In this document: piece by piece, positions 407 through 64,000 of the stretch
Numbering within the stretch: the first letter of the stretch is position 1
Layout of the letters: each line of letters starts with the position of its first letter
Virus record (IMG/VR): IMGVR_UViG_3300049063_000065
Coordinates: 307 to 64,306 of that record
Direction: 5' to 3' (one strand)
Origin: a virus
Length of the DNA: 64,000 nt
The notes under the pieces: generated by a model
The model's database searches: none
What the model saw: the letters and a program-made list of their open reading frames with translations, nothing else
What the model was told of the DNA's origin: nothing
Position numbers and translations under genes: made by a program

Positions 407-597
407 CATTTCGACTAGTAGCTGTGTTGGGTAACTCACTAATAGCCATAGTGCTGTTTACGTGGTCCTTAGTGGACCCAAAGCGGCGACAGACACTTAT
501 CTGCTACGCTATTTGGTTCGAGCTAGTTTCTCTCGTATTCGTGATTGGCGCTATTGCCATTCATACAGGTGCTTATCCACTTTGGAATAATAAATGA
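403..597 (+). CDS. Small membrane protein (2 predicted TM segments)
   Basis: Two hydrophobic stretches; coupled to the downstream glycosyltransferase gene. Confidence 0.6.
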   Translation: MTFRLVAVLGNSLIAIVLFTWSLVDPKRRQTLICYAIWFELVSLVFVIGAIAIHTGAYPLWNNK

Positions 598-2642
598 CAG
601 ATAAAATCTCAGTTCTAATCCCTAGTCGCAACGAAACCTATCTCAACCAGACGATCCAATCCTGTTTCGACAACGCCGCCGGGGAAATCGAGGTCGTCGT
701 CACTTTAGAGGGTTACTGGCCCTCCGATTGGAAAGACATTACCGCGCGTTACTCCAACCTGCACACCGTCCACCACGGCGAACCGCGAGGGCTACGCGCG
801 GCTATCAACTCCGCCGCCGCTTCTGCTATCTCTCGGGGTGCGCGATACCTGCTTAAACTCGACGCGCACTGCATGTTAGACCAGGGGTTTGACGAGAAGC
901 TGAAAGTCGACATGGAGGATAACTGGATTGTCGTCCCGCGGCGCAAGCGTCTCGATGCGGAGAACTGGCAAGTACAGGACGTAGGCAAACCCGACATCGA
1001 CTACCACTACATCTCCTTCCCTGATAATCCGAATGACTTCGGCGGCGCGGGATTGAATGGAAAGGTTTGGGAGGAGCGCGCAAGGGAACGCGCCGGTAAT
1101 CCTGAATACGACATTGACGATGAAATGTCGTCTCAAGGATCGTGCTGGTTTATGACCGCTGACTACTTTCGGCAACTGGAACTCATGGACGAAGCGAGCT
1201 ATGGGCCATTCTGGAATGAGGCGCAGGAACTTTTCCTTAAGTGCTGGCTCTCCGGCGGGCGCGGGGTGATCAACAAGAAAACATGGTACGCACATCTACA
1301 CAAGGGCAAGGACTACAAAGGCACCACGGGTAAGAGTGGGCGTGGTTATCGTCTCGACGAATCATGGCTCACCCAAGGCCGCAATCACACGATGAAGTGG
1401 CTCTATAACGAAGCATGGGCCAGACAGGCCTTGCCGTTCAAATGGTTAATTGAGAGGTTCTGGCCGGTGCCGGGGTGGCCGGAGGATTGGGAAGTAAGGA
1501 TATATGGAGACGTAAAACAGAAAGTCGCATTTGGTTTGCGGCCTGACGCTAACCCGGTCGGAAGAATCGAGGCTCCGATTTCGTCGCTGGAAATAAGCTC
1601 CAATGGCTTACTATTCCTCCTTTGGGCACGCTACGGAATCGGCTTCGACCATCCCAGTCAATACGTTAACGTGCTCCCGGCTCTCAGGGACAAGGTTCTC
1701 AATAATTCACTGGACATCGTGGTAACTAACCACGAATTAGGTGTCGGCAATCCCTTTCGCGGTAAGAAGAAGCGACTACAGGTGGCTTATCGCTACGGCG
1801 GAAACGGTGAGAAGGTTGTAGTTGAACGCGACGAGAAGGACTGGTTGATTATCGGGCAGATGCAGAGGCTTGACGTGCGTGACGGCGAGAACCCGATTCA
1901 GCAGATGCCGGAAGGGTTCGCGGAAGCGGAGAGTCGTGCGAAGCCGTACCAGGAGGCAGTCATAGCCCAGCGTCCCGCCCTCTACGTTCCCGGCGGCGTG
2001 AACACCCTCGTCCCGACCACGCCCACCGCCCTCAACGACTACCTCATCCGCAAGTTCTCCATCTCCGACCGTCGCCTGCGCGCTCCAATGCCGATTGAAC
2101 TGCGAGACTTCCATCGTGACAACTTGGCCCAACTGTTTGCGGAGTTGGGGTTCAAGCGCGGCGCGGAAGTCGGCGTCGCGGAAGGGATATATAGCGAGAT
2201 ACTGCTGAAGGCGAATCCCGAGTGCGAACTCCTGCTGGTCGATCCGTGGCACGCATACAGCGACAATCCGCAGAACAAGTCTAAGGAGAAGCACGAGTTT
2301 GCATATAGAGAAGTCTTACGCAAGACGAAAGACTACGCGGCCCACGCTGTCATGCAGGTCAGCATGGAGGCGGTACAGGATGTAAAAGAGGGATCGCTCG
2401 ACTTCTGCTACATCGACGGCAACCACTCCTTCGACTATGTGATACAGGATCTTATCGAATGGTCCAAGCGCGTCCGTTCAGGTGGGATCGTCTCAGGCGA
2501 TGATTACTACGCTCTCGACGAGAAACGCTGGGGTGCAGGGCCAGTGGAAGCTGTACAAGCGTATACGAAAGCGCATCGGATTCCGATCTGGTTCATCTTT
2601 CAGGGACACAAGTCGGTTGATTTTATGTGGGTGAAACCATGA
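594..2642 (+). CDS. Multidomain glycosyltransferase: GT-A (ppGalNAc-T/GT27-like) + lectin-like domain + class I SAM methyltransferase
   Basis: GT motifs ISVLIPSRNE, LDAHC (DxH), ELFLKCWLSGG...WYAHLHK. Middle segment WARYG...GNPFRGKKKRLQVAY. C-terminal GAEVGVAEG and YIDGNHSF...GGIVSGDDY (Methyltransf_24-like). Confidence 0.85.
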   Translation: MTDKISVLIPSRNETYLNQTIQSCFDNAAGEIEVVVTLEGYWPSDWKDITARYSNLHTVHHGEPRGLRAAINSAAASAISRGARYLLKLDAHCMLDQGFDEKLKVDMEDNWIVVPRRKRLDAENWQVQDVGKPDIDYHYISFPDNPNDFGGAGLNGKVWEERARERAGNPEYDIDDEMSSQGSCWFMTADYFRQLELMDEASYGPFWNEAQELFLKCWLSGGRGVINKKTWYAHLHKGKDYKGTTGKSGRGYRLDESWLTQGRNHTMKWLYNEAWARQALPFKWLIERFWPVPGWPEDWEVRIYGDVKQKVAFGLRPDANPVGRIEAPISSLEISSNGLLFLLWARYGIGFDHPSQYVNVLPALRDKVLNNSLDIVVTNHELGVGNPFRGKKKRLQVAYRYGGNGEKVVVERDEKDWLIIGQMQRLDVRDGENPIQQMPEGFAEAESRAKPYQEAVIAQRPALYVPGGVNTLVPTTPTALNDYLIRKFSISDRRLRAPMPIELRDFHRDNLAQLFAELGFKRGAEVGVAEGIYSEILLKANPECELLLVDPWHAYSDNPQNKSKEKHEFAYREVLRKTKDYAAHAVMQVSMEAVQDVKEGSLDFCYIDGNHSFDYVIQDLIEWSKRVRSGGIVSGDDYYALDEKRWGAGPVEAVQAYTKAHRIPIWFIFQGHKSVDFMWVKP

Positions 2643-2857
2643 TTAAAACAGCAAAAGAGGCGCGTCATTTATTTGACCACGGAAGTAAGACCGTAGACGA
2701 AGTTTTGGAACTAATAGAACGAGCAGCTAGGCGCAATAGTCGCTATGTTCAGTTTGATGGTTGGCCCAGTGACGAGGTAGTAGGTGAGTTAAAGCTACGA
2801 GGCTTTAGCGTTACCTTGTCGGAGGTGTTAAGTCCCTCAACTAAGATTTTCTGGTGA
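2639..2857 (+). CDS. Hypothetical protein
   Basis: ATG at 2639 overlaps the GT stop (ATGA); lies within track ORF 2627..2857. Confidence 0.55.
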   Translation: MIKTAKEARHLFDHGSKTVDEVLELIERAARRNSRYVQFDGWPSDEVVGELKLRGFSVTLSEVLSPSTKIFW

Positions 2858-2863
2858 TACCTA

Positions 2864-2872
2864 TGCTATCAT
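2864..2872 (+). promoter_or_regulatory. Extended -10 promoter (TGcTATCAT), probably leaderless for the second GT gene
   Basis: TG-N-TATCAT ends 9 nt before ATG 2882; no SD. Confidence 0.45.
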
Positions 2873-2881
2873 CCCCGCCCG

Positions 2882-4570
2882 ATGGCATTCCCCGCGCTTT
2901 CGATCCTTATTCCCGCCCGCGACGAGCACTACTACGACATCGATCTCCTTCATCATACTGTTGCTAACGTCCTTGCAAACACTTCCGACGCCACGGAAAT
3001 TGTCATAGTTCTCGATGGGTACTCCGACCACTGGCCCAAGACTCCGCTCCCTGCTAGTCCGCGCGTCACCGTCATTCATCATCGTCAAGCGATAGGCCAA
3101 CGCGCCGCCACCAATGAAGCAGCCCGCGTAGCTCAAGGCGAGTACGTGATGAAGCTGGACGCGCACACGGCACTCGATAAAGACTTCGACACAAAGCTAC
3201 TCGCGGAGTTCGACCCGCTATGGACGGTTGTGCCGCGCCAGTACAACCTGCACGTCTTCGATTGGAAGTGTAAGCAATGCGGCGAGCGTACCTACCAATC
3301 GCCGAAACCTTCGCGCTGCGCCAAGTGCAACAGCCGCTATCACTCCCAAGTTATCGTCTGGCATCCGACTGACGGCACGGGGAAAGAGCGCGGGGTGAGC
3401 AAGGGCGGCTGGAAGCATACTGTTACTGACTTCTGGCGCTTCGACTCTAATTTAGATTTCCAGTATTGGGGAGCATTAGGAAAGAGGCCGGAGTCTCAAG
3501 GTGAGATTGCGGACACTATGAGCTTGCTGGGCGCTTGCTGGGCCATGAGACGAGAAAGGTATTGGGAGCTTGACGGCCTTGATGAATCTCTCGGCTCATG
3601 GGGCGACATGGGAACGGAAATTTCATGCAAGACACATTTATCCGGTGGCAGACTGGTAACTAATAAGCGAACGTGGTTTGCTCATTTCTTCAGGGTTGGT
3701 GGAATTGGGTTTCCTTATCCCGGAGGCGGGCGAAAGGAGATAGCCAAGGCACGAGGAAAAGAAATCTGGCTAGGCAATAAATGGCCCAAGGCGAAGTATT
3801 CGCTCGACTGGCTGGTGAGGAAGTTTGCTCCAGTGCCCGATTGGCCGCAGATCAAACCCACTGTCGGCTGTCTCTATTACACCTGCTCCACTCTCTCCGA
3901 CCCCCTTGCCACCGCCGCGCGCAATCAACTCCTCCACGCTCGCAATGGTCACGAACTCGGCTGCGTTTCCCGTGAACGCTGTGATTTCGGCGACTGGAAC
4001 ATCGTCATCAACGAGCCGCGCGGACCACTAACCATGCACAAACAAATCCTCGCCGGACTGGAGCGACTCAAGGCTGACATCGTTTTCTTCTGCGAGCACG
4101 ATGTCCTGTATCACCCTTCGCACTTCGACTTCATTCCACCTGATAAGACGAAATTCTACTACAATACAAACGTCTGGCGCGTCCGTTCCCCTGACGGTCA
4201 CGCGGTAAAAACTACTGACTGCAAACAACTATCTGGGTTATGCTGTTGGCGGGAGTTAGCCCTTGAACACTACAGGGAGAGAGTGCGACGCATCGAAGCG
4301 GAAGGGTTCAGTCGGAAGAATGGATACGAGCCGGGCACGCGCGGCCTACCAAACGGCTACGACAACTCCCCCGCTGAGTCGTGGCAATCGGAGTTTCCAA
4401 ATCTCGACATTCGCCACGGCGATACAATTACCGGCAACCACTGGACACCGGAGAGTTTCAGGAATAAGAAGTACGCCGAGGGGTGGGAGGAAACGGACGA
4501 CGTGATACCGGGGTGGCCCAAGGTGGCGGGGAGACTAGAAGAAGTATTGAAGGAATTGGCAAATGTCTAA
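2882..4570 (+). CDS. Two-domain glycosyltransferase: ppGalNAc-T/GT27-like domain with Zn-ribbon insert + second GT-A-like domain
   Basis: LSILIPARDE, LDAHT, DESLGSWGDMGTEISCKTHLSGG...WFAHFFR. CKQC...CAKC insert. C-terminal domain with VFFCEHDVLY (DxD-like). Confidence 0.85.
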   Translation: MAFPALSILIPARDEHYYDIDLLHHTVANVLANTSDATEIVIVLDGYSDHWPKTPLPASPRVTVIHHRQAIGQRAATNEAARVAQGEYVMKLDAHTALDKDFDTKLLAEFDPLWTVVPRQYNLHVFDWKCKQCGERTYQSPKPSRCAKCNSRYHSQVIVWHPTDGTGKERGVSKGGWKHTVTDFWRFDSNLDFQYWGALGKRPESQGEIADTMSLLGACWAMRRERYWELDGLDESLGSWGDMGTEISCKTHLSGGRLVTNKRTWFAHFFRVGGIGFPYPGGGRKEIAKARGKEIWLGNKWPKAKYSLDWLVRKFAPVPDWPQIKPTVGCLYYTCSTLSDPLATAARNQLLHARNGHELGCVSRERCDFGDWNIVINEPRGPLTMHKQILAGLERLKADIVFFCEHDVLYHPSHFDFIPPDKTKFYYNTNVWRVRSPDGHAVKTTDCKQLSGLCCWRELALEHYRERVRRIEAEGFSRKNGYEPGTRGLPNGYDNSPAESWQSEFPNLDIRHGDTITGNHWTPESFRNKKYAEGWEETDDVIPGWPKVAGRLEEVLKELANV

Positions 4571-4778
4571 GGAACGAGGAAGGTTGGGAGATTCGTTTCG
4601 AGAACTACGGATTAGTGACGCGCTTAAGAAGCGGTACCTATGCGATCACGTCAAGGCGGGCGCTCAGGCAGTCAAGCGTTACGACACCCCGTACGGAATA
4701 GTGGCCACATGTGAGCAGTGTCAGAGTCTCGAAACCTTGAGATTAACCGTCGCGGGTGAAGTGCTTTCAAATGGCTAA
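4563..4778 (+). CDS. Small protein with possible Zn-binding motifs
   Basis: CDH and CEQC motifs; overlaps both neighbours. Confidence 0.5.
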   Translation: MSKERGRLGDSFRELRISDALKKRYLCDHVKAGAQAVKRYDTPYGIVATCEQCQSLETLRLTVAGEVLSNG

Positions 4779-5154
4779 CGAATGCCTCGATCAATATAAC
4801 GAGCGCTCCTCTGTAACTATCACTGTTACATTTACCGACGAGGATGGCGCGTCCGTCACTCCCGACACTGCCACTTATCGCATTGACGACGAGGCGAGTC
4901 GAACGAACATTCAGCCCTCCACTGCAATCGGCTCTCTCTCTGCGAGTATTGACCTGGAAATCACCAGCGAGCAGAATGCAATTATCAGACCACGTAAGCC
5001 GTTTGAGATTCGCACCGTCACTATCGAGTTCGACTACGATTCAGGGAAACATGGGACGGCGCAATATAAATATAAGTTGGTTAATTTATATGGCGTGGTG
5101 GACGTGCCGAGTGCGAGTGTGAGTCCGTCGGCAAGTGCGAGTCCGAGTGCGTGA
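4771..5154 (+). CDS. Putative virion Ig-like protein with C-terminal (Ser-X)n tail
   Basis: Beta-rich body; ends VPSASVSPSASASPSA. Confidence 0.65.
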   Translation: MANECLDQYNERSSVTITVTFTDEDGASVTPDTATYRIDDEASRTNIQPSTAIGSLSASIDLEITSEQNAIIRPRKPFEIRTVTIEFDYDSGKHGTAQYKYKLVNLYGVVDVPSASVSPSASASPSA

Positions 5155-10083: not shown

Positions 10084-10503
10084 ATGTGGTTTAAGAAAGT
10101 CAACAATCGACTCCTGAGACTGTTCAGTAATAACGGTCGCACTTATGGTGCGTTTCAGTTTGGGATTGACGCCGGTGGGAAGCCTATCGTCATTGGGATG
10201 GATTCGGAATTAGTGCTGGACACCTTATTCACCAACGGCTCCGCGTCGGGCTACGGCAAAGGGTCAATTGCAATGATGCGCGCCGGAGGGATTCGCGTTG
10301 TTGACGCCGACGGTCTCTGGCAGACACCGACCATCACCACCGTGAGTCAGAGTGCGTCGCCGTCAAGCTCCGTGTCGCCCAGCGCGTCGTTATCACCTAG
10401 CGCTTCAGCTTCCTTGAGCGCTTCGCCAAGCGCGAGCGTGTCGCTATCGCCGTCGCCAAGCGCATCAGCATCACCCAGTTCATCGGCAAGTCCGAGCGTG
10501 TAG
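10084..10503 (+). CDS. Virion-module protein with 52-aa C-terminal (Ser-X)n tract
   Basis: Ends SQSASPSSSVSPSAS...ASPSV; SD gagg. Confidence 0.7.
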   Translation: MWFKKVNNRLLRLFSNNGRTYGAFQFGIDAGGKPIVIGMDSELVLDTLFTNGSASGYGKGSIAMMRAGGIRVVDADGLWQTPTITTVSQSASPSSSVSPSASLSPSASASLSASPSASVSLSPSPSASASPSSSASPSV

Positions 10504-10515: not shown

Positions 10516-10848
10516 ATGCCTTCTCCTACGCCAACCGACGAGGACGTTACCGATGTTCGTGAAGTTACCGGCGAAATCAGTCGCACTATAATCACCACGC
10601 TCATTGACAACTTAAATAACGCCGAATGGGGACGGGCACTGGATCTCGTCACTGCATGGCGTGAAATTACTCCGGGGGATCTACTCAGTCTGGAAGGTGG
10701 CCGCGATGGCGTCCGGCTCAGCGACCAGGAGGGACTGGATGATATTCGTCGTCGAATGCGTCTCCTCTTAGGACTACCCGAATTGAGAGACGCCGACATT
10801 ACAGGCACAGTAGCGTCAACCAGCGTGCCGGTGCTGTGGGTGTATTGA
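10516..10848 (+). CDS. Putative head-tail adaptor
   Basis: 110 aa helical protein in the connector position; SD ggaggt. Confidence 0.5.
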   Translation: MPSPTPTDEDVTDVREVTGEISRTIITTLIDNLNNAEWGRALDLVTAWREITPGDLLSLEGGRDGVRLSDQEGLDDIRRRMRLLLGLPELRDADITGTVASTSVPVLWVY

Positions 10849-13592: not shown

Positions 13593-14456
13593 ATGTCGTT
13601 GTTTAGTGGACAAGGCCCTGGATTATGGAGCAACCGCAACACCAGCGGCAACCCAACTGAGTTTGTCTGGTTTGGCAACATCCCCGAGTTCACGCTGGGC
13701 CTCGCCTCCGACACGCTCACGCATAAGGAATCGTACACCGGACGCCGCACTACCGATGCGCGCATTATCACTGAGCTAACCGCGACCGTGGCGATTACGG
13801 TGGATGACTTCCGTGAGACCAACGTCGAGCTGGCGACTTACGGTTCGGCGTCTCAGGTGGCTACAGTCACGCTGACAGACGCGCCAGTTATCGCCGGAGC
13901 GCCGATTGTCGGCGAGCGCTATACCTCGACAACGTTGATTACTGGTCGCATCACTGGCGCAGTTGTCAAGTCAGCAGGCACGCCAGTCACCACTTCCTTC
14001 TACAGCGTGGATCAATCCGGCGTGATCGTTTTCACGGATGTCACCGGCCTCGCTGGCCCGATTACCCTGAGCGGCACAGTCGCGGCAGCGCGGCAAATCG
14101 GCGTATTCAAAAACGCAGCCCCGGAAGTCCACGTCCGGCTGGTCAACTTCAACACCGCAGCGTCGGTCATCGTCGGCGGTCAGTCAGACTTCGAGCGTAC
14201 GATAGTTGATGTGTTCAAGGTGCGGCTTGATCCGGCAGAGAACTTCAATCTCATCAACGATGAGTTTGGCCAACTAGTGCTCAACGGCTCAGCGCTGGTG
14301 GATACGACAAAATCAGAAGCCGGACCTACGGGCCAGTTCGCGCGCTTCATCTATCTCGACCCGCCGGTGCAGGCAGTGCCGTCACCGTCAGTCAGTCCGT
14401 CACTGTCGCCGTCGGCCTCAGTTTCACCTTCGGCTTCAGCGTCGCCGTCAGCCTAG
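13593..14456 (+). CDS. Major tail tube protein with C-terminal (Ser-X)n tail
   Basis: FSGQG...GNIPEFTL...HKESYTGRR...LINDEFGQLVLNG tail-tube pattern; ends PSPSVSPSLSPSASVSPSASASPSA. Confidence 0.8.
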   Translation: MSLFSGQGPGLWSNRNTSGNPTEFVWFGNIPEFTLGLASDTLTHKESYTGRRTTDARIITELTATVAITVDDFRETNVELATYGSASQVATVTLTDAPVIAGAPIVGERYTSTTLITGRITGAVVKSAGTPVTTSFYSVDQSGVIVFTDVTGLAGPITLSGTVAAARQIGVFKNAAPEVHVRLVNFNTAASVIVGGQSDFERTIVDVFKVRLDPAENFNLINDEFGQLVLNGSALVDTTKSEAGPTGQFARFIYLDPPVQAVPSPSVSPSLSPSASVSPSASASPSA

Positions 14457-21507: not shown

Positions 21508-24500
21508 ATGTTCTGGCAACTGGCCCTTCTCTCCGCGCAGATGATTCTCGGCGAGGTGACTCGTCAGCGCCCGAAGCGCATTTCGTTCAAGGAGTTCATT
21601 GATAATAACGAGCCGAGTGAGGTGCGTCCTATCGTCTACGCGGGCGGCACGATCGAACTCACTCCCTCACGTCAATGGTACGGCGACTTCCTGCAACGGG
21701 CGGTAGAACGTGACTCCCAGTGGACTGATTACCTGTTCATGGGCGGGCTGGCGTTCCTGCTCGACGCGATCACGGTTGCCTACCGCTCCTATATTGGCGA
21801 GATGTTCCCTTTGTGCTACGGCCCAGACGTACATATTGAGCGGGTAACGATTGATGATCGCGTGGTCTATCAGGCGACACCGGGGACGGATAACTCAGGC
21901 GGAGGGTTTCTAATCGACGACCCGCAGGCGTGGGGTGGAGATCAACCACCGGGCAGTGGCGGGGAGTATGCGTGGTGCGATATTACGCGCGGGAATTACA
22001 GCGATGGCGCGAATACTTATCTCGAATCGCTACTGGCTGAGCCACCGAATAAGACGCCGTCATTGCGCGGAGTATCAGCACTAGTCAAACGCGGTCCATC
22101 GGGATTCACCGAATCAGGGTACTTCGCTGCTGGTGGAGTCGGGACGATTCCGAAACTGAAAGTATGGAAGGTGACGATTCGCCGCCAGCCCGACAACCTC
22201 GCCACAGGGTTCCATAAAGTCGGGCGGCACATGAATCCGATGGAGACTATCTACGAATGGTCTACGTCGCTGGAGTATGGGGCGCGCGTGCCGCTGGAGG
22301 AGTTGAATCTCGATAGTTGGCGCTCAGCGGCAGAAGACTTGCATACCGAGGGTAATGGCTGGTCAGGACGGATTGAGGCCGCTACTTCTCCGCAAGCGGT
22401 GATTGACGACGTGCTGGCGCAGATCGACGGCATTCTCGATCCCTCACCGTCACTCGGTCTCACTATGCGGCTGATTCGTCGCGACTACTCCTTCGGCTCC
22501 CTGCGCGTATTGAACCGCGACAATATCACGCGCGTCGAGCGCTTTGCACCGGGTACTTACGAGGATACGAAGAATCAAATCCGTGTCGAGTATCCCGATC
22601 AAGACAACAACTTCGAGCAACGTCCGGCTATCTACACCGACCCTGCCAATCAGCAGATCCAGGGCCGACTGGTGCCGGAGACGAAGTCCTTTCTCGGCGT
22701 AGCGGATGCTGAACAAGCTAACGTCATCGCCACGAGGGATGGACGGGCCATTGCACTCCCTCGCGCACCATTGGAATGCTTCGTCTTCCCTTCCTTCGGT
22801 CGTCTCACCTACCGTGGTGAGGTGGTGTTGTTCGAGTGGGAATCGCCATCGTTCTCTATCGTCATGCGCGTCCTCGCGATTACGCCTAACGGTCCTGAAG
22901 AGAAGGATTACCGCCTGGTATTGATCGAGGACCAGTTCTCCACCGGGTTGCGCACCTTTGGCGAACCTGACGGGACGAGGCACGAAGATCCAGGGACGGG
23001 GTTGGATACCGCGCCGCCGAGCGCAACGTGGAATGAGGCTGACTTCGCGCCTGACGGGCTAACTCTTACTCTACTGCTGGACAACACGAATCAGTTCATT
23101 CCAACTATCGAGGGAGGGATTGTCTTCGGCTCGTACGCGCCGGGTGGACAGTATGCGCGGATCTACGCAACTGAACCGGGCGGCGCGCAGACTCTCTCCC
23201 CTGCGAGGCTAGTACCGGACGCCAACAACGAGGCAACTTTCCGCTGGCCCGCGAACGGCGAAGGGAATTACGAGTTCTGCGTGCAGACGTACTCACTGCG
23301 GGGAGTGACGAACGGAGTGAAGGTTTGCGTGGATATCGACGTAGGAGTAATTGGCGCGCCGTCAGTCAGTCCGTCGGCGTCGATTTCTCCCTCGTCGTCG
23401 GTATCGGCTTCTTCGTCCCCTTCACCATCGCGCTCAGCCAGCGCATCGGTCAGCCCTAGCGCGAGCACTAGCCCTAGCTCCAGCGTAAGTCCGAGCAGTG
23501 GTCCAAGTCCGTCGTCGTCAATTTCTCCATCACCATCCGCATCTGCTTCGCCGTCGTCTTCCGTGAGCGCAAGCGACAGTTCCAGTCCGTCCTCATCGGC
23601 ATCGCCCAGTCCCGGCGGCGGCTCACCCGACACTGGTAACATTGTCTTTATGGACAGCGCTGACATGCAGCCGACCAGTGGCACGGCGACGTGGTGGGAT
23701 GGTACTACGTCGTCGGGCATGCTGATCACGTCAGGTGTTTCAGGAGCGCATGATCGAGTGTGGCAATCGTCCAATAGCGGGCGACAGATTAAGACCTTGC
23801 CGTCGACATACAGCACGCTTTCAGGTCGCGCGCGATTCCGAATCACAACAGACGCGACCAAAGGCATCCTCAGATTGTACACACCAGCAGGGGACGAACA
23901 TCTCTCAGTAGAGTACGTGGCGGGCGGTAACTTTCGTTACGTGAACGGTTCAACCCAGCGCGCAATCAGCACGGGTGGTCACATCTCCCTGAATCACTGG
24001 TATGAAATCGAAGCCGTGTTGTTTATTCACGACACAATCGGCACGGTGACAGGTAATCTTTATGATAGCGAAGGAGCGGGCACGGGCGATCTTTTGGAAA
24101 CACTTCTCTTTGGGCCGGGGGACACTAGGGATGGATCAAGCACGGCCAACAGCGCCCTATTCGGTGCCGCTGATCAAATGGAAGACTTGGCAGTTGATTC
24201 CACTGGAGAACTATATGGTCCATCGCGTATTGAAGTATTGTCGCCGAGCGGCGCGGGCAACTACACCCAGCTATCGCGGACGGGAGCCGTAAACACTGGC
24301 GCAAACTTCTCGCAGGTTAACGAGCTGCCGTTTGTGGTCAGCAGTGGCGCTGGTGGCAGTGTTACTTCGACTGGCTCCAATCAGCGAGATAGCTATGCGT
24401 TTGCGAATCGAAGTATTGTCGGAACACCGCGATGCATAGGAGTTCACGCTGCCGTGGTTCGCGCAGTTACCGGCACCTTTACCTTCAAACTGTTCGTTCG

Positions 24501-24705
24501 CGTAGACGGCGTAGACTACGACTCTGCGACCACGTTCACCGCAGCGAGTATAACCGCCATTCATAGCGTCTACCTGCAAAACAATCCAGCGACGGGTAAC
24601 GCATGGACCGACAGCGAGATCGACGGCTCGGAGTTTGGCATTCTCTGTATCGATACGAGTGTGGCAATGAAAGCGATAGCGGTTCAGGTGTTTGTGCAGC
24701 TATAA
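21508..24705 (+). CDS. Tail tip / host-specificity protein with internal 85-aa (Ser-X)n linker
   Basis: Phage-tail_3-like core (NPMETIYE, MRLIRRDY, NQIRVEYPD); Ser tract 23359-23613; C-terminal beta-sandwich region. Confidence 0.8.
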   Translation: MFWQLALLSAQMILGEVTRQRPKRISFKEFIDNNEPSEVRPIVYAGGTIELTPSRQWYGDFLQRAVERDSQWTDYLFMGGLAFLLDAITVAYRSYIGEMFPLCYGPDVHIERVTIDDRVVYQATPGTDNSGGGFLIDDPQAWGGDQPPGSGGEYAWCDITRGNYSDGANTYLESLLAEPPNKTPSLRGVSALVKRGPSGFTESGYFAAGGVGTIPKLKVWKVTIRRQPDNLATGFHKVGRHMNPMETIYEWSTSLEYGARVPLEELNLDSWRSAAEDLHTEGNGWSGRIEAATSPQAVIDDVLAQIDGILDPSPSLGLTMRLIRRDYSFGSLRVLNRDNITRVERFAPGTYEDTKNQIRVEYPDQDNNFEQRPAIYTDPANQQIQGRLVPETKSFLGVADAEQANVIATRDGRAIALPRAPLECFVFPSFGRLTYRGEVVLFEWESPSFSIVMRVLAITPNGPEEKDYRLVLIEDQFSTGLRTFGEPDGTRHEDPGTGLDTAPPSATWNEADFAPDGLTLTLLLDNTNQFIPTIEGGIVFGSYAPGGQYARIYATEPGGAQTLSPARLVPDANNEATFRWPANGEGNYEFCVQTYSLRGVTNGVKVCVDIDVGVIGAPSVSPSASISPSSSVSASSSPSPSRSASASVSPSASTSPSSSVSPSSGPSPSSSISPSPSASASPSSSVSASDSSSPSSSASPSPGGGSPDTGNIVFMDSADMQPTSGTATWWDGTTSSGMLITSGVSGAHDRVWQSSNSGRQIKTLPSTYSTLSGRARFRITTDATKGILRLYTPAGDEHLSVEYVAGGNFRYVNGSTQRAISTGGHISLNHWYEIEAVLFIHDTIGTVTGNLYDSEGAGTGDLLETLLFGPGDTRDGSSTANSALFGAADQMEDLAVDSTGELYGPSRIEVLSPSGAGNYTQLSRTGAVNTGANFSQVNELPFVVSSGAGGSVTSTGSNQRDSYAFANRSIVGTPRCIGVHAAVVRAVTGTFTFKLFVRVDGVDYDSATTFTAASITAIHSVYLQNNPATGNAWTDSEIDGSEFGILCIDTSVAMKAIAVQVFVQL

Positions 24706-24723: not shown

Positions 24724-26961
24724 TTGGCAACCTTCGAGGAAACAGTTCTAGCGCTCAACCCGGTCCTCTTCTGGCGCTGCAAGGATCTAGCCGGTAGTCA
24801 AATCACCGACTACTCCGGTAATGACTTCCACGGAGACGCCGGTCCTGTCCTACTAGGCCAGCAATCAGCAGTGGAGACTGACCCGGCAGCGCGTAGCGTC
24901 TATATCCCTAACGGGTTTGCTAATAATATCTGCGAAATAGCCGTTCCGCCCGCCGAGTTGCTATTCACGGGCAATTTCACTATCGCGTGCTTTGTGCGGC
25001 ATCAATCGTCATCGGGGTTTAAGTATCTCTTTGCGCGCGGTGGCGGCGCTGGCAGTCCAGGGGATGGCTTGCATTTTCTCACCACCGGCCTTGCCACTCG
25101 CACGCTGCATTGTTGGTTCGTTACGACAGACGGCATAACTAATACTTCAAATCAAGTCAGCGCCTCAGTCAGCCACCTCAACGACGTTGACTATTTCGCC
25201 GTCGTGACGCGCAACGCCGATGTAGTGACGCTGTATCTCAACGCGGAAGTTGTGGGCCAGGATTCAGGATTAAGTATCGACCCGCTGGAGATAGACGGCA
25301 GCGACAGGATTACGTTTGGCTCGGGAGCGAATAACCTTGGACCACTCAAAGGGTGGGCCTCGGAGTTAATGATCTTCGACTATGCGCTTACCGAAACCCA
25401 GCAGCGGGAAGTATACGAGTCGGCGCTCAACGTCATCTTCCTCAATGGCAGGAGTGACGCTAACCCGACTGCAATCCTACGCTCCAATTTCGACCCTGAT
25501 CCAGTCAGTTACCCGTGGCGACACAATTGGACCGAGATACTGACCGAGCGAATCGCCTTCCGCAGCGCAATCTCGCAGGCAGTCACCGGAAGCGAGGAAG
25601 CGACAGGAGAGAGGTTAACGCCACGCAGGGAGTTGGAGTTTACGCAAGTATTGAAGTCGCAGGCAGAGCGTCGCAAGCTCCGCGCGCTCCTCTGGGCCAA
25701 CCAGCACGCGAAGTGGTTCATCCCCGTGAGACAGTACGCGGAACAATTACTGGAACCATTAGCCACATCGGCCACTGTGACGCCGATCACTACTGCGTAT
25801 AAGGATTACGAGGATGGAAGGTGGATTGGATTTCGCGAAGTGGATGACAGCGGAAACATCACCCACTGGGAAGAGAGGGTGATTACGGCGCTTAATCCGA
25901 ACTCGGTCGAACACGAGCCGCTGGTGAATTCCTACGTCGCTTATCGCTCCTCGTGCTATCCGGTGCGACGCGCGCTGCTTCCGCCTTCACTGAGTATCAA
26001 AGGCCATACCGACATAGTGGAGGAATTGACGATCACCGCGCGTCTCCTCCCTGAAGACGAGGTCGTTCCCCCGAACCGTATTACCGCGTTCATACCAGCG
26101 ATCAAATATCGCGATTACGAGGTATTCGATGGACAGGTATGGCAATCGAACGACTGGTCAGAGGAGCGGGAGTACGAGGTTGAACGCGCGGTGCAGGAGA
26201 TGGATTTCGATACTGGGTTGATTAGGCGCGAGTCGGACACGCCGGGAGCCAGTGAGGTGTTCAGTTATCGCATGGTGCTGGATGGCCACGAGAACATTGC
26301 GCAGTTCCTCGGCTGGTTCTACGAGCGACGCGGAGCACTCGCCTATCTCTGGGTGCCGACAGCGCAAGATGACTTTGAGGTGCTTTCATCTAACACCGGC
26401 GAGCATCAGATCACGGTGCGCGATACTAATTACAGCGATGCGTTTGCACTGGCTAAGGGACGGCGGGATTTAGCCTTCGTCTATTGGGACGGGTCGATGA
26501 GGTTTCGACGAGTGATCGCTTTCGAGGGCACGGTGAATGAGACGTTGACACTGGACGCAACTCTGCCCTCATTCGTCAACTTGCGCTTCGTCTCCCTGCT
26601 GAAGTTCTGTCGTTTAGATGCTGATCAACTGGAACTCGCATGGCACACCGACAACAAGGTAGTGGCGGCGTGGCGCTTTCGAGAATTACTGACTACACCT
26701 GAAGGGACTGGACGATCTTCTCTAAGTCCGTCAGCCTCGATGAGCGTATCTCTATCGCCAAGCTCGTCGCCTTCCCCGTCCAGTAGTATCTCGCTTAGTC
26801 GTTCCCCGTCAGCATCTCCATCACCCTCGGCGTCAGAGAGTCCGTCGAGCAGTCAGTCGCCTTCGTCGAGCGAATCGGGTTCACAATCACCCAGCAGTAG
26901 CGTGAGTCGCTCGCCAAGTAGTAGTACGTCGCCGTCTTCATCGCCTTCTCCGTCAGTGTAA
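24724..26961 (+). CDS. LamG-domain / minor tail fusion protein with 81-aa C-terminal (Ser-X)n tract
   Basis: LNPVLFWR...DYSGNDFHG...TLYLNAE...ELMIFDYALT (LamG). HNW...TPRRELEF and FYERRGALAYLWVP (minor tail). Ser tract 26716-26958. Confidence 0.75.
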   Translation: MATFEETVLALNPVLFWRCKDLAGSQITDYSGNDFHGDAGPVLLGQQSAVETDPAARSVYIPNGFANNICEIAVPPAELLFTGNFTIACFVRHQSSSGFKYLFARGGGAGSPGDGLHFLTTGLATRTLHCWFVTTDGITNTSNQVSASVSHLNDVDYFAVVTRNADVVTLYLNAEVVGQDSGLSIDPLEIDGSDRITFGSGANNLGPLKGWASELMIFDYALTETQQREVYESALNVIFLNGRSDANPTAILRSNFDPDPVSYPWRHNWTEILTERIAFRSAISQAVTGSEEATGERLTPRRELEFTQVLKSQAERRKLRALLWANQHAKWFIPVRQYAEQLLEPLATSATVTPITTAYKDYEDGRWIGFREVDDSGNITHWEERVITALNPNSVEHEPLVNSYVAYRSSCYPVRRALLPPSLSIKGHTDIVEELTITARLLPEDEVVPPNRITAFIPAIKYRDYEVFDGQVWQSNDWSEEREYEVERAVQEMDFDTGLIRRESDTPGASEVFSYRMVLDGHENIAQFLGWFYERRGALAYLWVPTAQDDFEVLSSNTGEHQITVRDTNYSDAFALAKGRRDLAFVYWDGSMRFRRVIAFEGTVNETLTLDATLPSFVNLRFVSLLKFCRLDADQLELAWHTDNKVVAAWRFRELLTTPEGTGRSSLSPSASMSVSLSPSSSPSPSSSISLSRSPSASPSPSASESPSSSQSPSSSESGSQSPSSSVSRSPSSSTSPSSSPSPSV

Positions 26962-53846: not shown

Positions 53847-54362
53847 TTAATCAACACAGCACGCCACGCCGCGCGTATACACCGAATCCAACTGCTCGCC
53901 GTCGCTCAACTTCTCGCGCGGCACCAGCCACAGCGCACAGCCGCGCGGATCTGATTGATGGTAGTAGGTCAACTCCGGGTAGCGAACCATGATCTTCTCC
54001 AGCCGCTTCAACGCACCTTTTTCACGATCGGCGGTTGGCGTGCGAGTCATTCGATCCGGCCATTGACCGTGACCGTAGACGTGGTTGACGAAATACGGCT
54101 TCCCGGTCTCATCGTCACGTTCAATCGCCCACGATCCGTGCTCATTGCCGTCGCCGCATTCGAGTTCGGCCCAACGGTGCAGCGCGCGCTCGATCAGTCT
54201 TAGTTTATCGGCGTCCTCGATTGACACGCCGATCTTCTCTAACGACCGGAAATACCTGGCCGTTTTGGTTGCTTTGGTTTCTCTCATTGTTCTGATTCTC
54301 CTTGCTGTTTTGTACTCGCCCAAGTCTGGTTTTTTTTTACACCGTAGTCCGCAACCCTTCAA
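53847..54362 (-). CDS. Phage hypothetical protein (QSDPRG motif)
   Basis: LHRWAELECG...YHQSDPRGCALW; real start probably internal (MRET). Confidence 0.6.
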   Translation of the reverse strand: MKGCGLRCKKKPDLGEYKTARRIRTMRETKATKTARYFRSLEKIGVSIEDADKLRLIERALHRWAELECGDGNEHGSWAIERDDETGKPYFVNHVYGHGQWPDRMTRTPTADREKGALKRLEKIMVRYPELTYYHQSDPRGCALWLVPREKLSDGEQLDSVYTRGVACCVD

Positions 54363-57211: not shown

Positions 57212-57220
57212 TCTTCACTT

Positions 57221-58732: not shown

Positions 58733-60343
58733 ATGGTCGCCCGCCTCCAGCAGCGTCGCAAGCACCCCGTCCTCGGTCCCGACTGGACGCAGTGGCCGCC
58801 CGAGGCACAGGTCCAACTCCTTGAATACCTTCGCTCGCTGGACAAACCGGGTGAACAGTTCAAGCAAACCTATCGCAGCAATCCAGTCGCCTTCGCTCAT
58901 GATTGCATCGACTGGCGCGACGAATCGCTAACTCAATACCAGGACGAAATCCTCGACGCGCTCCCTCGTCATCGTCGCGTTGCAGTCCGTGGCCCTCACG
59001 GGCTGGGTAAAACCTGTCTCGCAGCAATCTCCCTGCTCCATTTCTCCCTGACGCACGACGGCGACGACTGGAAAGTCCCTACCACGGCCTCCGCGTGGCG
59101 ACAGTTGAGCGAATTCTTCTGGCCGGAGATCCATAAATGGGCCACCCGGATTCGCTGGGATAAGGTGGGACGACCGCAATTCACGCAATTAGAGTTGCAG
59201 ACCATGCTTTTGCGTCTCAATACCGGGCGCGCGTTTGCAATGGCGTCCTCGGATGACGAACTTACAGAAGGAGCGCACGCTTCCCACCTTCTCTACATCT
59301 TCGACGAAGCGAAAGCCATCCCCGCTGGTCGCTGGGACGCCGCCGAGGGCGCGTTGATGACCGGCGACACCTACGCACTCGCTATCTCGACTCCCGGCGA
59401 ACCCCAAGGACGCTTCTACGACATCCACGCGCGTCGTCCGGGGTACGAGAACTGGTGGGTGCGGCACGTGACAGTGGATGAGTGCATCGCGGCGGGACGC
59501 ATCAAGCAGCAGGACGTAGAGCAGCTCGCTCGCCAGTGGGGTGAGAACTCCGCCGTGTTCAAGAATCGCGTTTTGGGCGAATTCTGTGAATCAACCGAGG
59601 ATACCGTCATCCCACTCTCGTGGATTGAAGCCGCCAATCGCCGCTGGGAGGAAAGGATCGAAGTAATCGACCGCCACTGGAACTGGATCGAAGGCGCGAA
59701 ACAAGGGAAGTGGCCGAGATGGCAGTGGCGACGAGAGGCGTTTCCCGTGGACGCGCTCGGTGTAGATATTGCGCGTAGCGATAAGGGTGACAAGACCGTC
59801 ATTGGGCGGCGTCAGGGACGCATCATCACTCAACTCGACCGCTACGCCATCGCTGACACGCAACCAGTGGTGGGATATACCTCAAACCTCTTAGAGCGCT
59901 GGCACCAGGCTTATGCGGTGATTGACATGATCGGTATCGGCAGTGGGCCATTTGATCAGCTCCGAGAGAGGTTCGGACACCGCGCAGTGGCGTTCAACGC
60001 GGGCGAAGCGACCACTCTCAAGGACAGATCAAAGGAGTTGGAATTTGCCGACAAGCGCTCCGCCGCGTGGTGGAACATGCGCGAACTCCTCGATCCGGCC
60101 TACGACAGCGATGTCGCCCTCCCGCCCTGCGATCTCCTTACCGGCGACCTTACTGGACCACGTCGTGGGCGGATGACCGGCAGTGGCAAGTTACGTGTCG
60201 AGTCCAAAGACGATCTGCGCAAGCCCGCGCGCCTCGGTCGCTCCACCGACGACGGCGACGCAGTGGTGCAGGCGTTCTTCCCGCGTAAGAAGGAACCCGC
60301 GCAGGACGATGCGTATTCATACTCGTACGAGGAGTACATGTGA
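58733..60343 (+). CDS. terL: Terminase large subunit
   Basis: YQDEIL, Walker A GPHGLGKT, Walker B YIFDEA, ISTP, RVLGEF; nuclease LGVDIAR...DKT and STDDGDA. Confidence 0.95.
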   Translation: MVARLQQRRKHPVLGPDWTQWPPEAQVQLLEYLRSLDKPGEQFKQTYRSNPVAFAHDCIDWRDESLTQYQDEILDALPRHRRVAVRGPHGLGKTCLAAISLLHFSLTHDGDDWKVPTTASAWRQLSEFFWPEIHKWATRIRWDKVGRPQFTQLELQTMLLRLNTGRAFAMASSDDELTEGAHASHLLYIFDEAKAIPAGRWDAAEGALMTGDTYALAISTPGEPQGRFYDIHARRPGYENWWVRHVTVDECIAAGRIKQQDVEQLARQWGENSAVFKNRVLGEFCESTEDTVIPLSWIEAANRRWEERIEVIDRHWNWIEGAKQGKWPRWQWRREAFPVDALGVDIARSDKGDKTVIGRRQGRIITQLDRYAIADTQPVVGYTSNLLERWHQAYAVIDMIGIGSGPFDQLRERFGHRAVAFNAGEATTLKDRSKELEFADKRSAAWWNMRELLDPAYDSDVALPPCDLLTGDLTGPRRGRMTGSGKLRVESKDDLRKPARLGRSTDDGDAVVQAFFPRKKEPAQDDAYSYSYEEYM

Positions 60344-60379
60344 TAGGATGCGCTGCCGACACCACTCGAAGGAGCACTC

Positions 60380-61081: not shown

Positions 61082-61090
61082 GAGGCTCGA

Positions 61091-61477: not shown

Positions 61478-61483
61478 ACGCAT

Positions 61484-64000
61484 GTGGCTAACCCTATCGT
61501 ATTCGACTCTACGGCGACCAGTCCTGGCGGAACCGGGACGACGATAACCGTCACCCTGCCCACTCACGCGGTTGGCGACATCATCTACATTGAAATCGGG
61601 AACACGGGATCGACGCTCTGGGCGGGCAATCCGGCGGGGTGGACCCGCGTTCAACAAGTCCAGGTTGGCACTTCAACTAACGGACTCGTAGGAACGTGGT
61701 TCTGGCACAAGGTGGTTTCTGGCGACTCTCTTCCTCTCTCCAATCCCATCTTCACTCTCGGCGCAACGGTTACGCGAGAGGCGTTTGCAAAGACCTGGCG
61801 CGCGGCTGATATTGAAGGCCCGTTCTCGCTGCCCGAATGGACCCAGCGTTCTTACAATACAGGTACCGCCAACCCTATTAGACCATCCAGTGTCACTACG
61901 CCTGCGCCTGAGATGCTGGTCAACGTCGGCTACTTCCAGCGCGCAGCCACCAACGCCCCCGATCAATCAGGCTATACACAGGATGAAGAGATCATCATCA
62001 GTGGCACGCTGGTAGGGAACGCCTCGAATAAAGTCGTCGCAGGTCAGCAAACAGTTCTCAGCAGCCAAGACGCCTCACCTACCTCTGGCGCACGATGGGT
62101 GGCGGGAATAGTCTGTGTTCCGTCCCCGGATTACGTCTATTACCGCTCCGGCTCACAGGCTTTGACTGCTTCAGGCACCTCGGCGACCCCTGCGCTGCCA
62201 ACCGGCACCAGCGCAAACGACAACGCCGGTCGCAAGGATCTAATCGTCGCCACAGTGGAATGCGCTGGAACACCGACGATCTCCCCTAACACTGGAGCCG
62301 ACTGGAACGAGATTGGCGGCGCGTGGTCCACTACCACCAGCGGTAACGGCTCGACGGTGCGAAAGTACTGGACGCTGTACGACGGCACGCTCGATCTCCA
62401 GTTCAATCGCTCCTCCACGGGCGAGATCTACGTCTATTTCAGTACTTATCGAAACATAGACCAGGCCGATCCAATCGGCGCTTTCGAGACCCAGCAGAAC
62501 GCCTCTTCAACTACCAGCGCCTTCCCCGCAATGACGCGCACTGAGACTAAGTCCACGGTCCAGATCACGTGCGTCGCCGATGGTACTCCAACCTTCACCT
62601 CGCCGTCCTCGTGGCTGGAGCGTAACGATGGCAATGGCGCGACTTGCGCCGACCAGCCTTTCAATACAGGAGGAGTAGTCGGCTCTGCCTCGTTTACGCT
62701 CTCGACTGCGAGTCCGACACTTGCCGGTCAGTTGGAAATCCTGAGTGCTTCCGGTGTGGCGGCAGGTTCTCCTTCTTCGTCAGTCTCTCCCTCGATTTCG
62801 CCCTCCGCGTCGCAGTCTCCCAGCGCGAGCGTTTCTCCCAGCATTAGCCCTTCGCCAAGTCCAAGTCTCTCTCCATCTGCAAGCGTCTCACCAAGCGTAT
62901 CGCCCTCGGTGAGTTCGTCTCCTTCAGCGAGTTCCAGCGCATCCCTGTCACCATCGTCCAGCGTTTCACCAAGTGAGAGTCCTTCGCCGAGTCCGAGTGT
63001 TTCGCCGAGCGCATCGCAATCACCGAGTTCCAGCGAGTCTCCGAGTTTATCTCCCAGTGCAAGCCTGTCACCGAGCGCTAGTGTTTCACCCAGTCTATCG
63101 CCTTCAGCTAGCACCTCACCTTCGAGTTCTCCTTCTCCCAGTGAATCGCCTTCAGCCTCGCTAAGTCCGTCGAGCAGTGCGAGTGAGAGCCTCTCGCCAT
63201 CGGCCTCAGTCAGTCCCTCCTCCTCCCCTTCTCCATCCGTGAGTCCGAGTGCCAGTCAGTCGCCCAGCAGCTCAGAATCACCGAGCGTCTCCCCGTCAGC
63301 ATCTACGAGTCCCAGCAGCTCACCTTCTCTATCCCAGTCTCCTTCAGCCAGTGTCTCTCCCAGCAGTTCTCCCTCACCAAGCATATCGCCGAGTGCGAGC
63401 GCTTCCCCTAGTGCCTCAGAATCCCCCAGTATCTCACCTTCGGCGAGCATCTCACCCTCGTCATCTCCATCCCCTAGTCTCAGTCCTTCATCGAGCGTCT
63501 CGCCCTCGGCGTCAATTAGTCCATCCAGCAGCGGGAGCGCAAGTCAGTCTCCGAGCGCATCCGAAAGTCCGTCTTCGTCAATATCGCCAAGCGTTAGTCC
63601 GAGCGCATCCGTCTCTCCCAGCAGCAGCGCATCTCCAAGCGAGAGTCCGTCTCTCAGTCCGTCCGCAAGTGAGAGTGCTAGTGCGTCGCCTTCAGGGAGT
63701 GCCAGTCCGAGTTCAAGCGTCTCCCCTTCAGTGCCGCCTGGTTCACCTTCGGTCTCTCCTAGTGCCAGTATATCGCCCAGCCAGTCGCCTTCGAGTTCTA
63801 TTTCACCTTCGTCCAGCATCAGTCCGTCGCTCTCTCCGAGTGCCAGCCCCTCGCCGTCAGCCAGTGAGTCCCCCAGCCCGTCACCCAGTAGTAGTGAGTC
63901 ACCGTCGCTTAGTCCCTCGGCAAGCGAGTCTCCCAGTCTCTCGCCCAGTTCCTCCATCTCACCATCAATCAGCCTTTCAGTCTCTCCTTCGCTCAGTCCC
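61484..64000 (+). CDS. Large serine-rich-repeat virion protein, truncated by the window end (not in track)
   Basis: Frame read by hand is open from GTG 61484 to 64000 (839 codons): about 428 aa of beta-rich sequence, then at least 411 aa of (Ser-X)n from 62768. Confidence 0.88.
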   Translation, partial: MANPIVFDSTATSPGGTGTTITVTLPTHAVGDIIYIEIGNTGSTLWAGNPAGWTRVQQVQVGTSTNGLVGTWFWHKVVSGDSLPLSNPIFTLGATVTREAFAKTWRAADIEGPFSLPEWTQRSYNTGTANPIRPSSVTTPAPEMLVNVGYFQRAATNAPDQSGYTQDEEIIISGTLVGNASNKVVAGQQTVLSSQDASPTSGARWVAGIVCVPSPDYVYYRSGSQALTASGTSATPALPTGTSANDNAGRKDLIVATVECAGTPTISPNTGADWNEIGGAWSTTTSGNGSTVRKYWTLYDGTLDLQFNRSSTGEIYVYFSTYRNIDQADPIGAFETQQNASSTTSAFPAMTRTETKSTVQITCVADGTPTFTSPSSWLERNDGNGATCADQPFNTGGVVGSASFTLSTASPTLAGQLEILSASGVAAGSPSSSVSPSISPSASQSPSASVSPSISPSPSPSLSPSASVSPSVSPSVSSSPSASSSASLSPSSSVSPSESPSPSPSVSPSASQSPSSSESPSLSPSASLSPSASVSPSLSPSASTSPSSSPSPSESPSASLSPSSSASESLSPSASVSPSSSPSPSVSPSASQSPSSSESPSVSPSASTSPSSSPSLSQSPSASVSPSSSPSPSISPSASASPSASESPSISPSASISPSSSPSPSLSPSSSVSPSASISPSSSGSASQSPSASESPSSSISPSVSPSASVSPSSSASPSESPSLSPSASESASASPSGSASPSSSVSPSVPPGSPSVSPSASISPSQSPSSSISPSSSISPSLSPSASPSPSASESPSPSPSSSESPSLSPSASESPSLSPSSSISPSISLSVSPSLSP

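Follow-up and report, generated by a model that had tools for sequence, protein, structure and literature searches.

The 64,306-bp IMG/VR record IMGVR_UViG_3300049063_000065, the genome of an uncultivated soil phage rated 100% complete, raises the question of why a phage places the same serine-rich repeat on proteins of its particle module and carries two glycosyltransferase (GT) genes directly beside them. The stretch analyzed here, hereafter the window, comprises 64,000 nucleotides (nt) and spans bases 307-64306 of that record. Six proteins encoded in the window carry tracts in which Ser alternates with another residue (Ser-X, or SX), and two genes, denoted GT_A (594..2642, plus strand) and GT_B (2882..4570, plus strand), encode enzymes that resemble the polypeptide N-acetylgalactosaminyltransferases (ppGalNAc-Ts; family GT27). 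Because the same tag is present on six particle-module proteins and is accompanied by two mucin-initiator-like enzymes, the phage probably sugar-coats its own particle. Specifically, we propose that virion proteins bear a portable Ser-X tag and that the phage's own enzymes O-glycosylate this tag in the cytoplasm, a reading to which we assign a probability of roughly 70% based on sequences and structural models. A first-pass annotation of the window, made from its letters alone, had proposed a phage-encoded O-glycosylation system of this kind, and its interpretation is supported by the analyses reported here.

A regular-expression scan of all six frames of the window identified six long tracts, and no more, in which alternate residues are Ser, each on the plus strand: 5110-5151 (14 amino acids, aa), 10345-10500 (52 aa), 14382-14453 (24 aa), 23362-23613 (84 aa), 26719-26958 (80 aa), and 62768-64000 (411 aa, open at the window end). 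These positions agree within one residue with those of the first-pass annotation, with four of the tracts starting one residue later. The scan returned four other matches of 10 aa each, at 345-374, 10713-10742, and 20130-20159 on the minus strand and at 54190-54219 on the plus strand; these are of chance size, and the open reading frames (ORFs) of the early region are without a real tract, as had been claimed. Ser comprises 50-59% and Pro 14-21% of the tracts, Thr accounts for 4 of 664 residues, and Lys and aromatic residues are almost absent, whereas outside the tracts Ser makes up 5.2% of 6482 codons. The X residues are Pro (128), Ala (61), Val (33), Leu (22), Ile (15), Glu (14), Gln (9), Gly (5), Thr (4), Arg (3), Asp (1), and Met (1). 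All six Ser codons are used in comparable numbers (AGT 84, TCG 82, AGC 66, TCA 63, TCT 39, TCC 34), and Tandem Repeats Finder detected no array in any tract except for a 2-copy 18-bp unit at 14370-14407. The mixture of Ser codons and the lack of tandem arrays rule out an origin of the tracts by DNA slippage and bear out the earlier claim that the repeat is kept at the protein level.

Four of the tracts are C-terminal tails. The first ends a small beta-rich protein encoded between GT_B and the portal gene (4756..5154, plus strand; 132 aa from a GTG start, with an ATG at 4771). This protein matches phrog_912, a family of unknown function (E 1.9e-5), and a search of the ESM Atlas with 4771-5106 returned only unnamed viral clusters. 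The second ends a 139-aa protein encoded directly after the major capsid gene (10084..10503, plus strand) that matches no Pfam or PHROG family and for which the ESM Atlas (10084-10344) returned chance P450 rows only. The third ends the major tail (tube) protein (13593..14456, plus strand; 287 aa), a member of phrog_807, which comprises major tail proteins with an Ig-like domain (E 1.7e-46, aa 1-254), and the fifth ends a LamG-domain tail protein (24724..26961, plus strand; 745 aa) with matches to Pfam Laminin_G_3 (E 3.4e-10) and the tail assembly family phrog_1082 (E 1.2e-69). The remaining two tracts are internal. In the tail tip protein (21508..24705, plus strand; 1065 aa), the tract separates a conserved N-terminal part, where the tail protein family phrog_1101 matches (E 9.2e-67, aa 31-495; also Pfam Phage-tail_3), from a C-terminal domain, the C-terminal part matching phrog_6368. 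In the fibre-like protein (61484..64000 and past the window end, plus strand; ~890 aa), it follows a 428-aa N-terminal part that matches no Pfam or PHROG family. The first-pass annotation had followed this last tract to the window end, over at least 411 aa; the length of 411 aa within the window stands, but the ORF runs 51 residues further by way of the terminal repeat of the record and closes with a 43-aa non-repeat C-terminus (record bases 1-280). Two genes before the fibre-like gene, the product of 60380-61081 matches tail fibre PHROGs (E 1.7e-7).

Comparison of orthologues reveals purifying selection on the alternate Ser of the tags. The tail of the small protein is 14 aa long in 10/10 orthologues and all seven of its alternate Ser are invariant, six of them being encoded by both TCN and AGY codons among the orthologues. 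Likewise, the tail of the tail tube is 24 aa long in 7/7 phages, with 12/12 alternate Ser invariant and nine of these encoded by both codon families. The X positions of both tails vary. Collectively, the fixed length, the invariant Ser, the switching between TCN and AGY codons, and the variable X positions indicate that the SX tail is a precise, selected motif rather than a drifting spacer. Tails of 42-56 aa are also present on the orthologues of the 139-aa protein in all eight capsid relatives that encode the GTs.

The tag also looks like a portable add-on when homologous proteins are compared. The 250 tail-tube homologues from isolated phages align only to about aa 255, and in the two GT-less isolated phages that were inspected the tail tube ends 0-4 residues past the conserved core with no SX tail, which agrees with the earlier description of the tag as portable. 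Homologues of the small tagged protein adjoin GTs in three loci (L190, L191, and L207) from phages that share no other structural gene with the one described here, suggesting that this protein may be part of a mobile cassette. In some relatives (L187, L198, L242, L346, L373, and others), single SX tracts reach 900-1350 residues and are far longer than those of this window.

The first-pass annotation had recognized both enzymes as GT-A glycosyltransferases, and both match Pfam Glycos_transf_2; they are the only PF00535 genes in the phage genome. GT_A (682 aa) comprises a GT27-like GT-A domain (aa 1-~305, nt 594-1508), a small beta-rich middle domain (aa ~340-420, nt 1611-1853), and a domain resembling S-adenosylmethionine-dependent O-methyltransferases (aa ~502-682, nt 2097-2639), all on the plus strand, with Pfam matches to Glycos_transf_2 (aa 6-127, 38.7 bits) and Methyltransf_24 (aa 525-638, 48 bits). 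In a Foldseek search of the PDB with its AlphaFold2 (AF2) model (pLDDT, the predicted local distance difference test score, 75.5), every listed top match down to rank 50 was a ppGalNAc-T, and the exhaustive aligner VIA placed GalNAc-T1 (Z 25.4) and Toxoplasma GalNAc-T3 (Z 24.4) ahead of the next family (Z 17.6). Residues 502-682 match small-molecule and sugar O-methyltransferases (VIA Z about 16.7). The middle domain has a sub-threshold match to Pfam DnaJ-like_C11_C (PF11875; 19.5 bits, cut-off 27.1) that recurs in many homologues in precomputed annotation, and the domain is conserved. All of 32 homologues retain residues D90, H92, H234, and H236, and the GT_A sequence profile reaches the ppGalNAc-T structure 1xhb at just E 7.3e-4. 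In several relatives (L003/L144, L004, L008, and G003), the GT-A and methyltransferase parts of GT_A are separate genes, and one locus (L009) encodes four GT-A paralogues.

GT_B (562 aa) combines a GT27-like GT-A domain (aa 1-324, nt 2882-3853), which contains a four-Cys ribbon insertion (C130, C133, C146, and C149; nt 3269-3328), with a second nucleotide-sugar-transferase-like domain (aa 325-562, nt 3854-4567), all on the plus strand. It matches Glycos_transf_2 with 61.4 bits and ppGalNAc-T10 in a phmmer search (E 1.2e-6). A profile of 31 homologues yielded 17 matches in the PDB at E<=1e-3, 16 of which are ppGalNAc-Ts (best E 2.1e-12), and the alignment to these includes the LDAHC and WG..E...H.FR motifs. 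The AF2 model (pLDDT 88) has ppGalNAc-Ts and K4CP as its top Foldseek matches, while VIA ranks GalNAc-T1 (8v9q; Z 26.3, root-mean-square deviation 2.9, 274 residues aligned) and Toxoplasma gondii GalNAc-T3 (TgGalNAc-T3, 8uhv; Z 24.6) ahead of the next family at Z 17.6. The second domain (aa 325-558) resembles IspD/MobA (VIA Z about 11), and alignments to K4CP and PmHS2, both two-domain polymerases, extend over aa 1-530. Residues D93, H95, W240, G241, E246, H268, E405, D407, H414, and the four Cys are invariant in the 31 homologues. The N-terminal domains of GT_A and GT_B are paralogues (hhalign E 5.8e-46, 276 columns). These profile and fold comparisons uphold the earlier assignment of the enzymes as GT27-like.

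The likeness extends to the putative active sites. W240, G241, and E246 of GT_B align with the WGGENLE sequence of ppGalNAc-Ts, where GT_A has FWNE; the WGGE...E stretch is presumably the Gal/GalNAc-T motif. D93, H95, and H268 of GT_B and D90, H92, and H234 of GT_A align with LDAHC and HVFR of 1xhb and with each other. In mouse GalNAc-T1, the Mn ligands are Asp209, His211, and His344 (PMC4202792). The GT27 ppGalNAc-Ts (8v9q, 1xhb, 2d7i, 6nqt, and 8uhv) are the nearest solved fold to both phage GT-A domains, and they share with them the DxH motif and third His (in both enzymes); the WG..E residues align in GT_B, and the putative phage acceptors are, like those of ppGalNAc-Ts, Ser/Pro-rich disordered tracts. 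In contrast to GT27 enzymes, which are type II membrane proteins of the Golgi lumen, the phage GTs, which are encoded by a virus of prokaryotes, have no stem or membrane anchor: both models begin with a first beta strand at residues 5-12, and no N-terminal helix, stem, or membrane segment is seen. This suggests that they act in the cytoplasm. They further differ in their C-termini (a methyltransferase domain in GT_A and a second GT-A-like domain in GT_B), in the four-Cys ribbon, and in the near absence of Thr from their putative acceptors. No ricin family was present among the Pfam matches of GT_A and GT_B, and a genome-wide search for PF00652 was empty, as were its controls. With no membrane anchor and no lectin domain found using Pfam, the phage enzymes are not members of GT27 in the full sense.

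Co-occurrence of the GTs and the tag across related genomes, which the first-pass annotation had put forward as a check, was evaluated through four sampling routes: from the GT, from the tag, from simple-repeat controls, and from neutral markers (terminase and capsid). GT_B matches at least 3995 proteins in a metagenome protein collection, and GT relatives are encoded in at least 193 IMG/VR stretches; GT_B had no tblastn match in 50,697 isolated phage records. The GT-first sample comprised the best 80 of the 193 loci found with the profile, and a tract was counted if it was complex, >=12 aa long, and within 10 kb. Complex tracts were identified in 68 of these 80 loci and a 17-aa (SA)n tail in two more; among close GT loci, SX tracts were present in 8/8. 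Only 8 of 84 GT loci compared have capsid, portal, or head-tail genes in common with the phage described here, and eight GT loci, including a complete genome of 45.9 kb, have no capsid homologue. The pairing of GT and tag therefore spans many phage backbones.

The converse association was also observed. A DNA pattern for SPSASxSPSAS that demanded Ala codons recovered 118 stretches, 82 of which have a complex tract of >=30 aa; an earlier DNA pattern for SX tracts had mostly picked up simple (SP)n repeats. GT profile matches were present in 23/41 and 28/33 of the SX-bearing records, or 49 of 72 distinct records, and in none of the 40 records with simple (SP)n-type repeats that served as controls. 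Among terminase relatives (n = 43), the four that encode both GTs all have tracts, totaling 598-927 aa, whereas none of the 16 that lack the GTs and extend >=8 kb downstream has a tract >12 aa. Three short contigs of terminase relatives have tracts but end before the expected place of the GTs. Among capsid relatives (n = 13), the eight with GTs carry tails on the same three orthologous proteins and the five without GTs have no tract (whole records for four, one of them complete). Since these five relatives also have different tail modules, the capsid contrast is between modules rather than between orthologues.

Several observations weigh against the proposed glycosylation and its coupling to the tag. 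Of the six carriers that the first-pass annotation had placed in the virion module, the tail tube (phrog_807), the tail tip (phrog_1101), and the LamG tail protein (phrog_1082) are virion proteins by family, but the other three are assigned to the virion by gene position only, and the major capsid protein has no SX tract in the six-frame scan. SX tracts were not found in 10 of the 80 GT loci, and the SPSxSxSPSxS pattern is absent from five tract-less GT records, one of which is 112 kb long and 76% complete; the GT family can therefore exist without the tag and is not strictly tied to it. The opposite situation, SX tracts in phages lacking the GTs, is one that the first-pass annotation had named as contrary to its proposal. 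It is mostly not what is seen, since 12 of 14 distinct SX-bearing records that are >=90% complete encode the GT family, but the two complete phages G070 and G087 have SX tracts without it. A further record (G004; 184 kb, 51% complete) has 180 aa of tract and only a sub-threshold GT2 match. The co-occurrence counts are not phylogenetically independent, and many of the records are fragments. With regard to the enzymes, the methyltransferase domain of GT_A matches a family labeled 'DNA methyltransferase' in PHROGs, and comparisons of GT_A and GT_B with gp108-110 of mycobacteriophage Che8 are insignificant (BLASTP best E 0.016; hidden Markov model, HMM, <=7.6 bits).

The two complete phages that lack the GT family differ from each other. 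The sole tract of G087 is 32 aa long and Pro-rich. In G070 (the record of L356, with loci L411-L414; 44.5 kb), SX tracts amount to about 1000 aa and no GT27-like gene is present; the phage encodes three other PF00535 (GT2) genes that do not fit the GT profile. By eye, sulfotransferase-like and NAD-epimerase-like ORFs adjoin one of these GT2 genes, and G070 may have an alternative set of enzymes for the same kind of tag.

The phages with tracts but no GT family and the tract-less GT loci are both consistent with an alternative in which the SX tracts are unmodified, extended linkers or bristles that act as lineage-typical low-complexity spacers, the GTs have another target (e.g., a small molecule, a free polysaccharide, or the envelope of the host), and the GTs and fibre genes are accessory cargo of one variable region. 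The tracts of the tail tip and fibre-like proteins indeed sit between domains, and GT_B could make a free polymer given its resemblance over aa 1-530 to the glycosaminoglycan polymerases K4CP and PmHS2. Yet four of the tracts are free C-terminal tails that link nothing, and the invariance of tail length and of alternate Ser despite turnover between TCN and AGY codons goes far beyond the needs of a spacer. Moreover, the same phage uses Pro/Thr-rich linkers elsewhere (in a beta-helix protein encoded at 27043-28755 and in the portal C-terminus), the pairing of GT and tag recurs on backbones without common structural genes and is absent from all control records, and the enzymes are predicted to be soluble, with no membrane segment in their models. 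We consider this alternative unlikely.

The virion could instead be glycosylated by the GTs at sites other than the SX serines, with the tracts serving as docking or spacer elements that bring in the enzymes or display adjacent domains, or else binding a GT_B polymer non-covalently. ppGalNAc-Ts read substrates by means of appended domains (PMC4202792), GT_A has an extra beta-rich middle domain, and GT-bearing phages without tracts exist. However, tracts that are more than 50% Ser and have almost no Thr, Lys, or aromatic residues offer hydroxyl acceptors and little else, and serine-rich repeat adhesins with SX repeats are glycosylated on those very serines (PMC6973325, PMC7948813); glycosylation at such other sites is quite improbable. 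That the tracts are modified by host enzymes or otherwise (e.g., with phosphate) and that the phage GTs are unrelated to them is very improbable, given the strong two-way association of GTs and tracts across backbones and the lack of a kinase or other modifying enzyme among the Pfam matches of 46 window proteins. All of these alternatives lose weight because four tails are free at the C-terminus, the alternate serines do not vary, the association holds in both directions, and the enzymes are predicted to be soluble; they retain some because tracts are missing from ten GT-bearing loci and the GT family is missing from two phages that have SX tracts. DNA glycosylation was also considered as a function of the GTs and was rejected: Pfam searches of 20 further ORFs revealed no hypermodification genes, but only AAA_24, PD-(D/E)XK, a D5-like primase-helicase, and a PIF1-like helicase.

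We therefore favor O-glycosylation of the Ser-X tag and infer its steps, including transfer to Ser, the division of labor between the enzymes, the sugar, its methylation, and the biological role, as follows. GT_A and GT_B would be soluble, Mn-dependent GT-A enzymes with paralogous catalytic domains. Late in infection, at least one of them would move a sugar from a nucleotide sugar onto serines of the tag. The acceptor would be (Ser-X)n, in which Pro, Ala, Val, and Leu predominate as X and which is either C-terminal or interdomain in the six proteins; a putative acceptor peptide is of the type SPSASVSPSASASPSA. Elongation of the glycan is probably the task of the second GT-A-like domain in GT_B, and its O-methylation probably that of the methyltransferase domain in GT_A. 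The tail tube, the tail tip, fibre-type proteins, and probably also the head would thereby bear bristles of mucin-like glycan that resist proteases. A broader hypothesis is that (Ser-X)n is a portable and genetically encoded glyco-tag recognized by soluble phage enzymes, that among non-eukaryotic enzymes these are the nearest relatives of GT27, that they act with a two-domain extender and a sugar methyltransferase to build mucin-like bottle-brush glycans (>1000 residues in some relatives) on tails, fibres, and heads, and that the cassette crosses unrelated backbones and is common in soil viromes. We regard this broader hypothesis as evenly balanced between being right and wrong.

Virion glycosylation in mycobacteriophages, reportedly described by Freeman and colleagues in 2023 (Che8 gp108-110, Corndog gp35-38, and Myrna), offers the most direct comparison. 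Che8 gp108 has the same fusion of Glycos_transf_2 and Methyltransf_24 as GT_A, whereas gp110 is of the GT25 type, unlike GT_A and GT_B. The capsid and tail tube of Che8 end in short ...TGS and ...DGS sequences and have no SX tracts. Mycobacteriophages are described as modifying the C-termini of capsid and tail tube proteins with their own GTs (PMC11600133, PMC12619734, PMC12363180), and in Corndog an O-methyltransferase gene and GT genes adjoin the portal gene (PMC4351075). The arrangement in the window is similar in that GTs and a methyltransferase are located in or beside the virion module, near the portal gene. In contrast to the mycobacteriophage systems, the tag described here is long and repeated; six proteins bear it, and the major capsid protein does not. 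That the enzymes are close kin of those of mycobacteriophages was considered and rejected on the basis of tblastn, BLASTP, and HMM comparisons.

The serine-rich repeat glycoproteins of Gram-positive bacteria resemble the phage system in the acceptor only, namely in their long Ser-X dipeptide regions. Their initiating enzymes, GtfA/GtfB, belong to what we take to be another GT family (Pfam PF00534). No PF00534 (Glycos_transf_1) match was detected in the complete phage genome, while a control search was positive in 14/14 genomes. Nor was an accessory Sec export system seen, with no search directed at SecA2/Y2. In proteins of the GspB/Fap1/SraP type, Ser occupies alternate residues, X is Ala, Val, Glu, or Ile, among others, and O-glycosylation takes place intracellularly prior to export (PMC6973325, PMC7948813). 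The phage system differs further from these in that the carriers are phage particle proteins and Pro is the commonest X residue. In chlorovirus PBCV-1 (A064R) and in giant viruses, enzymes with GT domains joined to a sugar methyltransferase decorate the viruses' own structural protein. The capsid glycans of these viruses, which infect eukaryotes, are N-linked or atypical and are attached without a repeat tag. Within the literature covered, our search returned no description of phage Ser-X tracts paired with GT27-like enzymes.

The organization of the genome is that of a siphovirus-type phage. The late block lies on the plus strand and runs from the large terminase gene (58733-60343) through the fibre-like genes and across the record ends to the two GT genes, followed by genes for the portal, scaffold, major capsid protein (phrog_29), connectors, tail tube, tape measure, and tail tip, and extends to ~29 kb; the early block, which encodes AAA_24, PD-(D/E)XK, the D5-like primase-helicase, and the PIF1-like helicase, is mostly on the minus strand. 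The GT genes (594-4570) are located between the fibre genes and the portal gene and on the same strand as both; the genes for the terminase, the fibres, the GTs, and the portal are arranged in a single uninterrupted block. The region of window 63874-64000 and record bases 1-306 contains a 127-bp direct terminal repeat, situated where the fibre gene encodes its SX tract. Since the fibre ORF reads through this repeat, the record represents a circularly closed assembly. No tRNAs and no Rfam matches were found in the phage genome.

Two other features of the structural region were observed. A minus-strand ORF at 12803-13450 (215 aa) with Cys-rich and HNH-like motifs (DH..P...N, by eye) breaks the plus-strand structural operon between a 192-aa gene and the tail tube gene. 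It adjoins a 217-aa ORF without a known family (12178-12831, plus strand), and the gap before the tail tube gene is ~1.35 kb as compared to ~0.5 kb in a relative (L139). The interruption at 12178-13450 is likely a homing-endonuclease insertion. Downstream, 27043-28755 (plus strand) encodes a right-handed beta-helix protein that is depolymerase-like (Pfam Beta_helix, sub-threshold) and in which a Pro/Thr-rich linker (TTTPLPTPPPPAPEPTPTPIPEPTPAPPPAP) precedes the C-terminal domain. The phage thus has a second type of linker that is not Ser-X.

Near-identical DNA is present in soil metagenome runs, with no RNA run among the sequencing runs listed. The terminase is most like those of Actinoplanes and Streptomyces phages, while the tail tube is most like those of Pseudomonas, Vibrio, and Ralstonia phages. 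The sole match among genome contigs is a 10.7-kb contig binned to an Anaerolineae metagenome-assembled genome, and this contig is itself probably phage.

To our knowledge, only a few mycobacteriophages have so far provided documented cases of phage-encoded virion glycosylation, which in them weakens recognition by antibodies. The case described here suggests a form of virion glycosylation that differs in mechanism and is far more widespread. If the proposed mechanism is correct, Ser-X-tagged particle proteins would constitute a large, unrecognized class of viral glycoproteins, and the enzymes would provide glycobiology with a prokaryotic-virus branch of GT27-like enzymes as well as a ready tag-plus-enzyme tool for making O-glycoproteins in the bacterial cytoplasm. 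For the phages themselves, it would give a new picture of the surfaces of soil phages, in which a glycan coat may contribute to adhesion to the matrix, resistance to proteases and desiccation, and masking from defences.

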